64,000 nucleotides of DNA from Escherichia phage vB_EcoM_I14.1. Where the stretch lies: sequence record PP892526.1; one strand, 5' to 3'. Position numbers and translations under genes: made by a program. Below the pieces are notes generated by a model that worked only from the letters and a program-made list of their open reading frames with translations, did no database searches and was not told where the DNA came from. Shown piece by piece: positions 11,708 through 11,840 of the stretch (position 1 is its first letter; the number at the start of each line of letters is the position of its first letter).

Positions 11708-11840
11708 ACAGAAGACCGTTTACAGCAAAACTTAAACAATCTATTTCTCCGGTAAAGAAAAGGCGAAGGTTCGATTCCTTCACTCGGCAGATGTCGAGTT
11801 GGTGTAATGGTAGCACTTAAGATGATAAACAACGGTCTGG
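11708..11840 (+). ncRNA. structured element E4 with circularly permuted tRNA-like domain (candidate YrlA-like Y RNA)
   Basis: Closing stem AGACCGT/ACGGTCT; inside, in order: hairpin TTTCT-ccggtaa-AGAAA, T-arm GAAGGttcgattCCTTC, 3' acceptor ACTCGGC, loop, 5' acceptor GTCGAGT, D-arm GTGT-aatggta-GCAC. Confidence 0.5.

Follow-up and report, generated by a model that had tools for sequence, protein, structure and literature searches.

A handle-closed, circularly permuted tRNA-like element, probably a Y RNA, downstream of a gene for a predicted Ro60-like protein in Escherichia phage vB_EcoM_I14.1

Ro60 proteins and their Y RNAs form a conserved RNA-surveillance machine, the bacterial and phage biology of which is still sketchy. 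In the bacterial YrlA RNAs (RF02553), the paired 5′ and 3′ ends enclose four elements in the order additional hairpin, T arm, acceptor-like hairpin, D arm, and a gene for a Ro60 orthologue within 4 kilobases (kb) on the same strand serves as their rule of genomic context; YrlA is bound by Ro60 and bears tRNA modifications (TruB, DusA) (Chen et al. 2014, PMC4201824). Among phages, the Ro60 of Thermus phage phiLo binds phage Y-like RNAs and recruits the host PNPase (PMC12135203; PDB 9KOP, 9L5Y), and gp130 of the Felixounavirus Bas63, a Ro60-like protein encoded directly upstream of transfer RNA (tRNA) genes, counters the Ppl defence; the authors of that study guessed that some of these "tRNA genes" are possibly Y RNAs (preprint 2024, PMC11482910). 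Here we describe E4, an element on the + strand of Escherichia phage vB_EcoM_I14.1 (sequence record PP892526.1; the stretch of 64,000 nucleotides (nt) that was analyzed is called the window), which lies together with three shorter paralogues, E1 to E3, in a tRNA gene array that follows a gene for a Ro60-like protein. A sequence-only reading of the window had proposed that E4 is a tRNA-like module in the permuted order of YrlA-type Y RNAs, and this interpretation is supported by the present analysis. We consider E4 likely to be a non-coding Y-type RNA, about 130 nt long, that combines a terminal handle with a circularly permuted tRNA and serves as partner of the Ro60-like protein.

The region is 100% identical to its counterpart in Escherichia phage vB_EcoM_D4, a Felixounavirus. 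E4 sits in the 455-nt gap between tRNA-Asp and tRNA-Lys (11533-11987), within an array that spans 10866-16519 and contains 24 tRNAs detected by ARAGORN and one more detected by Rfam at 12588-12666. The element starts with CAGAAGACCGTTTACAGCAA and finishes with AACGGTCTGG. Its minimum-free-energy fold, calculated using RNAfold in contexts of 151 nt and 455 nt, shows all four hairpins at once, enclosed by an 8-base-pair (bp) terminal stem formed by AGACCGTT and AACGGTCT, with a weak CTTAA/TTAAG helix added between the handle and the tRNA core (Table 1). Every component listed in the sequence-only reading, that is, the anticodon-like hairpin, the T arm, the two acceptor strands, the discriminator and the D arm, is present on the + strand where it had been placed, and the T arm, acceptor and D arm, whose failure to pair simultaneously would by that reading have spoken against it, form together in both contexts. 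The order from 5′ to 3′ is terminal stem, extra hairpin, T arm, acceptor hairpin, D arm and again terminal stem, which agrees with the YrlA-type topology that had been recognized and with the layout given by Chen et al. 2014. The same reading had described closure of a tRNA at its acceptor end and opening on the anticodon side; the closure is found as described, and the break lies between the D arm and the anticodon-like arm, at tRNA position 26, not within the anticodon loop.

E4 is found in 252 phage records, in 245 of them with at least 80% coverage. Thirteen distinct versions of E4, taken from Felixounavirus, Suspvirus and Mooglevirus, were aligned. Pairing in the acceptor hairpin is 100%, and three of its pairs are altered on both sides, with sequences across genera of ACTCGGC/GTCGAGT, ACACG/CGTGT (as ACACG-TTACGG-CGTGT in Suspvirus and several Mooglevirus phages) and ACCCTTC/GAAGGGT (as ACCCTTC-GCCAAACA-GAAGGGT in phages Moogle and HP1). 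The T arm is likewise 100% paired and near-invariant, with one loop and one stem substitution, while the D arm is invariant save one loop base, with G9 replaced by A in Moogle and HP1; the equivalent RNAs of Bacillus phage Chewbecca and of the IMG/VR contig L047 have a near-identical D arm (TGGTGTAGTGGnAGCAC). The loop of the first hairpin, on the other hand, varies among the orthologues (CCGGTAA, CTGGTAA, CTATAAA, CTCAAAA, and CGGTAA with 6 nt), and the hairpin of E4 thus carries no anticodon.

An independent covariance model of the core (R2: T arm, closed acceptor and D arm) was trained exclusively on six RNAs found beside DUF2828 genes in six other, unrelated phages, with acceptor loops trimmed to 4 nt. 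On the 64-kb window, its best match is 11763-11818 (53.3 bits, E = 5e-14), full length and gapless, to be compared with 46 to 60 bits for the training sequences and at most 26.2 bits for the next-best matches in the window, which are tRNA-tRNA junctions. It should be mentioned that MAFFT alignments of whole handle RNAs (A3) and of whole tRNA-like cores (A5) had their 3′ strands out of register and were replaced by the fixed-length trimmed alignments A4 and A6, so that the interiors in A4 and the acceptor loops in A6 are artificial. The permuted-tRNA pattern in E4 is real and goes beyond chance.

The ends of E4 form a handle that is common to E1, E2 and E3, all located in gaps of the same tRNA array. 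It consists of a helix of at least 7 bp, the first pair of which is exactly 10 nt 5′ of CAGCAA, and of an unpaired G after the 3′ strand; stem positions 6 and 7 covary between the paralogues (AA/TT versus GT/AC). Among 28 handles from 11 phages outside the Ounavirinae, CAGCAA is invariant (28/28) and always stands 10 nt after the first stem pair, 99.5% of the cells are paired, and all seven pairs covary. A strict pattern was defined, consisting of CAGCAA, a helix of 7 bp that begins 10 nt 5′ of it, a distance of 15 to 135 nt to the partner strand downstream, and a G immediately after that strand. It matches exactly E1 to E4 in the window, on the + strand only, with an expectation of 0.39 and a maximum of 2 in 200 dinucleotide shuffles. 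For a further test set of 65 IMG/VR loci, with DUF2828 homologues 40% to 47% identical, there are 56 matches on the gene strand, mostly right after the gene, versus 1 on the opposite strand, and at least one match in 42 of the 65 loci; the opposite strand of 15 curated DUF2828 loci gave zero matches. A handle model built from other phages only (R1) has E2 as its top match in the window (24.2 bits, E = 0.004). The short paralogues have 5-bp/7-nt hairpins resembling anticodon stem-loops. No family of Rfam 15 reaches its threshold on the handle RNAs. A hammerhead or other ribozyme reading of the interior of E1 was considered and dropped, the core motifs being absent as judged from the sequence.

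The presumed protein partner is encoded on the same strand about 1 kb upstream of E4, by an open reading frame whose end is 165 nt short of the first tRNA. Its product matches Pfam DUF2828 and DUF7788 as well as PHROG 850 "RNA-binding protein". The AlphaFold model, computed with a 38-sequence alignment, has a predicted local distance difference test (pLDDT) value of 88.6 and a predicted template modeling (pTM) score of 0.88, and a Foldseek comparison of it with the PDB returned Ro60/TROVE structures for all of the top 11 matches, over the full length and with template modeling (TM) scores of 0.5 to 0.66, including Xenopus Ro60, Deinococcus Rsr and the Ro60 of phiLo. As it matches DUF2828 and DUF7788 and not TROVE, the protein is, judging by the modeled fold, a Ro60-like paralogue rather than a Ro60 orthologue. 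Bas63 gp130 is presumably its counterpart, judged from the published description. Literature searches found nothing on the function of DUF2828 (PF11443, UCP015417). The DUF2828 fold is also present in giant viruses of protists, and mimivirus-like DUF2828 homologues were reported in a tardigrade-genome paper (bioRxiv 10.1101/033464). We also noticed a small DUF5681 gene immediately upstream on the same strand (8832-9203), a pairing that is kept in relatives with a 53% to 63% identical Ro60-like protein (loci L010 to L012, about 5560-5946).

Compared with YrlA, the layout of E4 is borne out by the minimum-free-energy fold, the covariation and the R2 match, and the context fits in distance (1 kb) and strand, the neighbor being a Ro60-like paralogue by predicted fold. 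Both RNAs have a nearby same-strand gene for a ring protein with a vWA domain that is of Ro60 type, in the case of E4 by predicted fold, and both have shorter companions, YrlB in the case of YrlA and E1 to E3 in the case of E4. Unlike YrlA, E4 neighbors a DUF2828/DUF7788 protein and not a Pfam TROVE protein, lies within a tRNA array of a phage, has ACAGCAA, always in a register of 10 nt, in place of GNCGAA(N)G, and retains a full 5-bp/7-nt anticodon-arm-like hairpin. The phiLo RNAs Yrl1 and Yrl2 resemble E4 in being phage partner RNAs beside the gene of a phage Ro60-fold protein, and the phiLo protein is itself among the fold matches; by their description they are set apart, since they are chosen by a CGAA motif and are not described as tRNA-like (PMC12135203). 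E4 is best assigned, as the tRNA-like member, to a so far uncatalogued family of ACAGCAA-handle RNAs that goes with Ro60-like proteins of the DUF2828 type. GGUCUGG looks similar to GGUCCGA in a strand of metazoan Y RNAs, but this comparison was dropped, as GGUCUGG is on the opposite stem strand and is not conserved in other phages.

Table 1. Features of E4, its paralogues and the neighboring gene in the window, followed by tRNAs with a handle insert in other phages (positions of the latter refer to the loci named)
Feature	Position	Strand	Evidence or remark
E4, whole RNA with handle and permuted tRNA	11709-11842	+	Fold; strict pattern match 11713-11839; 245/252 phage records
Handle stem, 5′ strand AGACCGTT	11713-11720	+	Pairs with 11831-11838
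Single-stranded ACAGCAA motif, invariant	11722-11728	+	CAGCAA comparison across handles of other phages
Anticodon-arm-like hairpin TTTCT-CCGGTAA-AGAAA	11744-11760	+	"V" element in YrlA terms; stem kept, loop variable
Variable region AGGC, 4 nt	11761-11764	+	
Canonical T arm GAAGG-TTCGATT-CCTTC	11765-11781	+	Orthologue alignment; T-arm position in model R2
Acceptor stem closed as hairpin ACTCGGC-AGAT-GTCGAGT	11782-11799	+	7 bp, one G-U, 4-nt loop
Acceptor hairpin parts ACTCGGC; A; GAT; GTCGAGT	11782-11788; 11789; 11790-11792; 11793-11799	+	
U8-G9 (TG)	11800-11801	+	
D arm GTGT-AATGGTA-GCAC	11802-11816	+	
Handle stem, 3′ strand AACGGTCT, with conserved unpaired G	11831-11839	+	Fold, pairing, pattern
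E1, short handle RNA (CAGAAGACCAATTGCAGCAA ... TTGGTCTGG)	11035-11108	+	Repeat family D16; strict pattern 11039-11106
E2, short handle RNA	11198-11263	+	Strict pattern 11202-11260; R1 top match; RF01414 20.1 bits
E3, short handle RNA	11619-11697	+	Repeat family D16; strict pattern 11623-11694
Gene for 471-residue Ro60-like protein, Pfam DUF2828 and DUF7788/vWA	9285-10700	+	Presumed protein partner of E1-E4
Handle-insert tRNA, Klebsiella phage FBKp34 (L020)	6003-6116		Internal hairpin, then UUACAGCA(A)
Handle-insert tRNAs, Cronobacter phage S13 (L023)	5395-5518; 5525-5640		Internal hairpin, then UUACAGCA(A)
Handle-insert tRNA, Aeromonas phage LAh_6 (L022)	994-1113		Internal hairpin, then UUACAGCA(A)

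The handle is found in very diverse phages, where both the short and the tRNA-like handle RNAs lie on the gene strand beside genes of this Ro60-like protein family (DUF2828 plus vWA). In Klebsiella phage FBKp34, three handle elements follow the DUF2828 gene, and the long one matches Rfam YrlA with 39.6 bits (E = 2.5e-7 in a 485-nt search); the relative in mycobacteriophage Krypton555 scores 38.3 bits. Krypton555 and BigCheese, another mycobacteriophage, have a short, a tRNA-like and a second short element after a gene annotated as "Ro-like RNA binding protein", which is outside any tRNA array. Similar handle arrays are present in phages of Aeromonas, Campylobacter, Ralstonia, Cronobacter, Enterococcus, Listeria, Staphylococcus and Bacillus. 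In Listeria phage LMSP-25 (L027), which has three handle RNAs with its DUF2828 gene, we also noticed a ROOL RNA (RF03087, 88.5 bits, E = 2e-16) about 1 kb upstream of that gene and a gene for an RtcB-type "tRNA-splicing ligase" 1.3 kb downstream (1928-2479, 6308-7519). For Vibrio phage XZ1 (T4-like; L021), no handle RNA in complete form was seen at up to 4 kb from the DUF2828 gene, and AGACATTTTACAGCAA is found in the 5′ leader of this gene, just ahead of the start codon (3964-4001).

The permuted-tRNA fold and the position just after the Ro60-like gene make E4 most likely the Y RNA of this phage. The array promoters at 10719-10747 and 10810-10839, with no + strand terminator up to 12300, suggest that E1 to E4 are co-transcribed with the tRNAs. 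They would then be transcribed within the tRNA polycistron and cut out by tRNA-processing enzymes, after which the handle may act as the binding site of the ring-shaped Ro60-like protein, much as the conserved helix of Y RNAs does for Ro60, and the tRNA-shaped module may offer its elbow and acceptor to a tRNA-recognizing partner.

Several points weigh against this assignment. E4 as a stable RNA and the handle as a protein-binding site are predictions drawn from the comparison of sequences. The single-sequence folding energy of E4 is modest (z = -1.39) and unremarkable, so that the case for E4 rests on cross-sequence comparison, and the CTTAA/TTAAG helix is poorly supported by the 13 orthologues (78% paired, no compensatory change). 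The YrlA/Ro60 motif GNCGAA(N0-1)G is missing from the 5′ strand, and the Rfam YrlA model gives no match on 11500-12020 (521 nt) even at E ≤ 10, its gathering threshold being 69 bits; because of both, membership of E4 in RF02553 was rejected. Of E1 to E4, only E2 is recovered from the window by R1 at E ≤ 10, because the longer interiors of E1, E3 and E4 are penalized, for which reason the explicit pattern test was used instead. As for the protein, it has no Pfam TROVE match, a PDB sequence search returned nothing useful, and the relation to Ro60 is seen by comparison of the predicted fold only, at 12% to 17% identity. Finally, gp130 counters Ppl on its own, whether supplied on a plasmid or inserted in T7 (PMC11482910); the RNAs are therefore not needed for the Ppl phenotype, which argues against a model in which the ribonucleoprotein is the anti-defence factor.

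The most conserved part of E4 is the handle, which is not a tRNA feature, and the handle tracks the DUF2828 gene and its strand, as seen from the 56 versus 1 and the zero opposite-strand matches given above, even where the gene is not in a tRNA array (Krypton555, BigCheese). These observations make it unlikely that E4 is a tRNA-shaped decoy or processing element that acts without the Ro60-like protein, either as punctuation for RNase P or RNase E or as a bait for tRNA nucleases, with the gene being only a neighbor. Such a role would nevertheless suit the position of E4 among the genes of a tRNA array, where no + strand terminator separates it from the array promoters, the anticodon-stem-loop-like hairpins of the short paralogues, the activity of gp130 against Ppl without RNAs of the E1 to E4 type, and the 7-bp acceptor, which is of the kind that allows cleavage of mycobacterial YrlA by RNase P; the M. 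smegmatis YrlA, also with a 7-bp acceptor, is cut by this enzyme and receives CCA (PMC4201824).

That E4 would be missed or mis-called by tRNA scanners had been anticipated, and this is indeed the case: ARAGORN makes no call at E4 in its scan of the window, the Rfam tRNA model (RF00005) gives a partial match of 22 bits, below the threshold of 29, that covers the anticodon-like and T arms only, and GenBank records contain a 129-nt "tRNA-Thr-GGT" in phage ASO1B and a "tRNA-Thr" in REP5 and REP9 at this place. These annotations, the presence of all four arms, and the N-CCA after the acceptor 3′ strand in some orthologues are what one would expect of a real decoding tRNA, either a tRNA-Thr(GGU) with a long intron, the call made by tRNAscan-SE in some of these records, or a permuted gene whose transcript is circularized and re-cut as in the red alga Cyanidioschyzon. 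We regard this as very unlikely, as the "anticodon" loop is variable, has C33 for U33 and is of 6 nt only in FO1a and Tf, the annotated 5′ half falls in E3 and has no D arm, both scanners argue against it, and the conserved handle has no role in the maturation of permuted tRNAs. Bacteria are not known to have the pathway with a splicing endonuclease by which permuted tRNAs mature. Cyanidioschyzon merolae has circularly permuted tRNA genes, reportedly described by Soma and co-workers in 2007, which resemble E4 in that the 3′ part of the tRNA comes first and the 5′ part second, with a short stretch of sequence linking the two acceptor strands. However, these genes give rise to normal decoding tRNAs via a circular intermediate, whereas E4 has no conserved anticodon and is closed by an additional conserved element, the handle.

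Decay of tRNA genes does occur in this array, for example in the tRNA-Met between E1 and E2, which has lost 4 nt of its T loop, and the sequence-only reading had itself raised the alternative that E4 is made of two unrelated tRNA fragments left by a deletion. Yet a functionless scar that joins the 3′ part of one tRNA gene to the 5′ part of another is highly improbable here: the acceptor strands of the two "halves" are complementary and covary across genera, the T and D arms are near-invariant, E4 is present in about 250 genomes, and the same architecture with different sequences is found beside DUF2828 genes of unrelated phages. Permuted ssrA genes also have the T arm and the acceptor 3′ strand ahead of the acceptor 5′ strand, but we give hardly any credence to a two-piece, circularly permuted transfer-messenger RNA (tmRNA), as ARAGORN, which is able to detect permuted tmRNA, finds none in the window, E4 has neither a tag reading frame nor a pseudoknot region, and Rfam tmRNA does not match.

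A possible origin of the permuted order in these Y RNA candidates is suggested by tRNAs of normal order, 114 to 124 nt long, in FBKp34 and Cronobacter phage S13, which carry a hairpin and UUACAGCA/AUUCAGCA as an insert between the D and anticodon arms. In a tRNA of Aeromonas phage LAh_6, an insert with an exact CCUUACAGCAA replaces the anticodon loop. In GenBank, these handle-insert tRNAs are labeled tRNA-Asp, tRNA-Ser or tRNA-OTHER, and the one of LAh_6 is unannotated. If a handle-insert tRNA is opened in the loop of its insert and its acceptor ends are joined, the element order of E4 results. The permuted order would probably have arisen when a tRNA with the handle at position 26, in the form of an internal hairpin, was duplicated in tandem. 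The acceptor loop starts with N-CCA in several E4-type RNAs (Moogle and HP1, L012, RSP15, S13 and L047), which is what tandem duplication of a CCA-encoding tRNA gene would leave.

The handle alone also resembles the Class I RNAs, which are abundant in dictyostelid amoebae and believed to be unique to Dictyostelia, and which start with (AA)G and a 6-bp variable stem followed by CCUUACAGCAA, end with CUG(U), are about 60 nt long and have clustered genes (Kjellin et al. 2021, PMC7919456). In their 11-nt motif CCUUACAGCAA, U3, C6, C9, A10 and A11 are invariant, and the stem starts with G. As in the phage handle, the terminal stem is variable in sequence with conserved pairing, (CC)UUACAGCAA comes right after the 5′ strand, and the 3′ strand is followed by (U)G, giving the end CUG; the short handle RNAs further share the A+U-rich variable interior, the length of about 60 nt and the clustered genes. 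E4 has GUUUACAGCAA, which agrees with 9 of the 11 motif positions and keeps all five invariant ones, and its stem ends with CUGG. In a scan of the 4227 Rfam families, Dicty_Class_I_RNA (RF01414) is the only one that matches E2 (20.1 bits), and it also matches two FBKp34 elements (25.2 and 23.6 bits) and eight consecutive tandem elements of LAh_6 (19 to 29.6 bits), in all cases over the full length and on the gene strand but below the threshold of 41.5 bits. E4 itself is not matched and, by this score, is not a Class I member. The two groups differ in the linker from the conserved G-C pair to CAGCAA (3 nt in phages versus 4 nt in 37 D. discoideum sequences) and in the tRNA-like insert of E4, with its length of 132 nt, none being described for Class I RNAs. 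A motif search in incomplete files of dictyostelid proteomes gave no DUF2828-like protein, a result of no weight given that these files are truncated. It is a tentative and rather doubtful suggestion that the handle may be the recognition element of the whole DUF2828 Ro60-like branch, with the dictyostelid Class I RNAs as eukaryotic Y-like members of the same RNA family. In that case, the design would exist in phages in three forms: the short handle RNAs, permuted tRNAs closed by the handle, such as E4, and true tRNAs in which it is inserted at position 26.

A number of other features were noticed in the tRNA array, all on the + strand. Directly 3′ of E4 is another structured RNA of about 145 nt (11842-11985), with an outer stem of about 23 bp in which five pairs are altered on both sides between Felixounavirus and Susp/Mooglevirus; its central ATTCTAGATT is conserved and no Rfam family matches it. 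Related phages have an annotated tRNA-Met(CAT) between E1 and E2; its counterpart here is at 11120-11191, where the T loop reads GGTT----TCC versus GGTTCGACTCC in the relatives and ARAGORN makes no call, and it is probably a pseudogene in vB_EcoM_I14.1. The Rfam tRNA match at 12588-12666 (31.7 bits) is slightly over the threshold and has no ARAGORN call, and a tRNA-Arg(TCT) is annotated downstream of tRNA-Ile in related phages. Another gap of the array contains a short hairpin at 13538-13572, AAGGTTA-TTACAGC...-GAACCTT-G, with a truncated handle-like motif (CAGCTT, not CAGCAA), which is the third match of R1 (14.4 bits, E = 0.89) and lies within a larger inverted repeat (13518-13607). On the 5′ side of E3 there are a G+C-rich hairpin, GAGAGGGCTATTTAGCCCCTCCC (11564-11586), and the 24-nt TAAAGCGTTCTTACGAGTATTCTT (11587-11610), the latter found again at 15409 and 16553; the two together are conserved in phage Moogle.

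The locus pins down the probable RNA partners that were merely guessed at in the 2024 preprint for the Ppl-defeating Ro60-like protein of a Felixounavirus. The handle family has a simple, searchable signature and accompanies the same protein in phages with hosts among Proteobacteria, Firmicutes and Actinobacteria. This signature enables handle RNAs to be found and mis-annotated "tRNA-Thr", "tRNA-OTHER" and over-long tRNA calls in phage genomes to be cleaned up, and the handle-insert tRNAs suggest a route from tRNA to Y RNA. If the likeness to the Class I RNAs reflects common descent or a shared protein partner, a class of RNAs that has been an orphan for 20 years would acquire a function open to testing.

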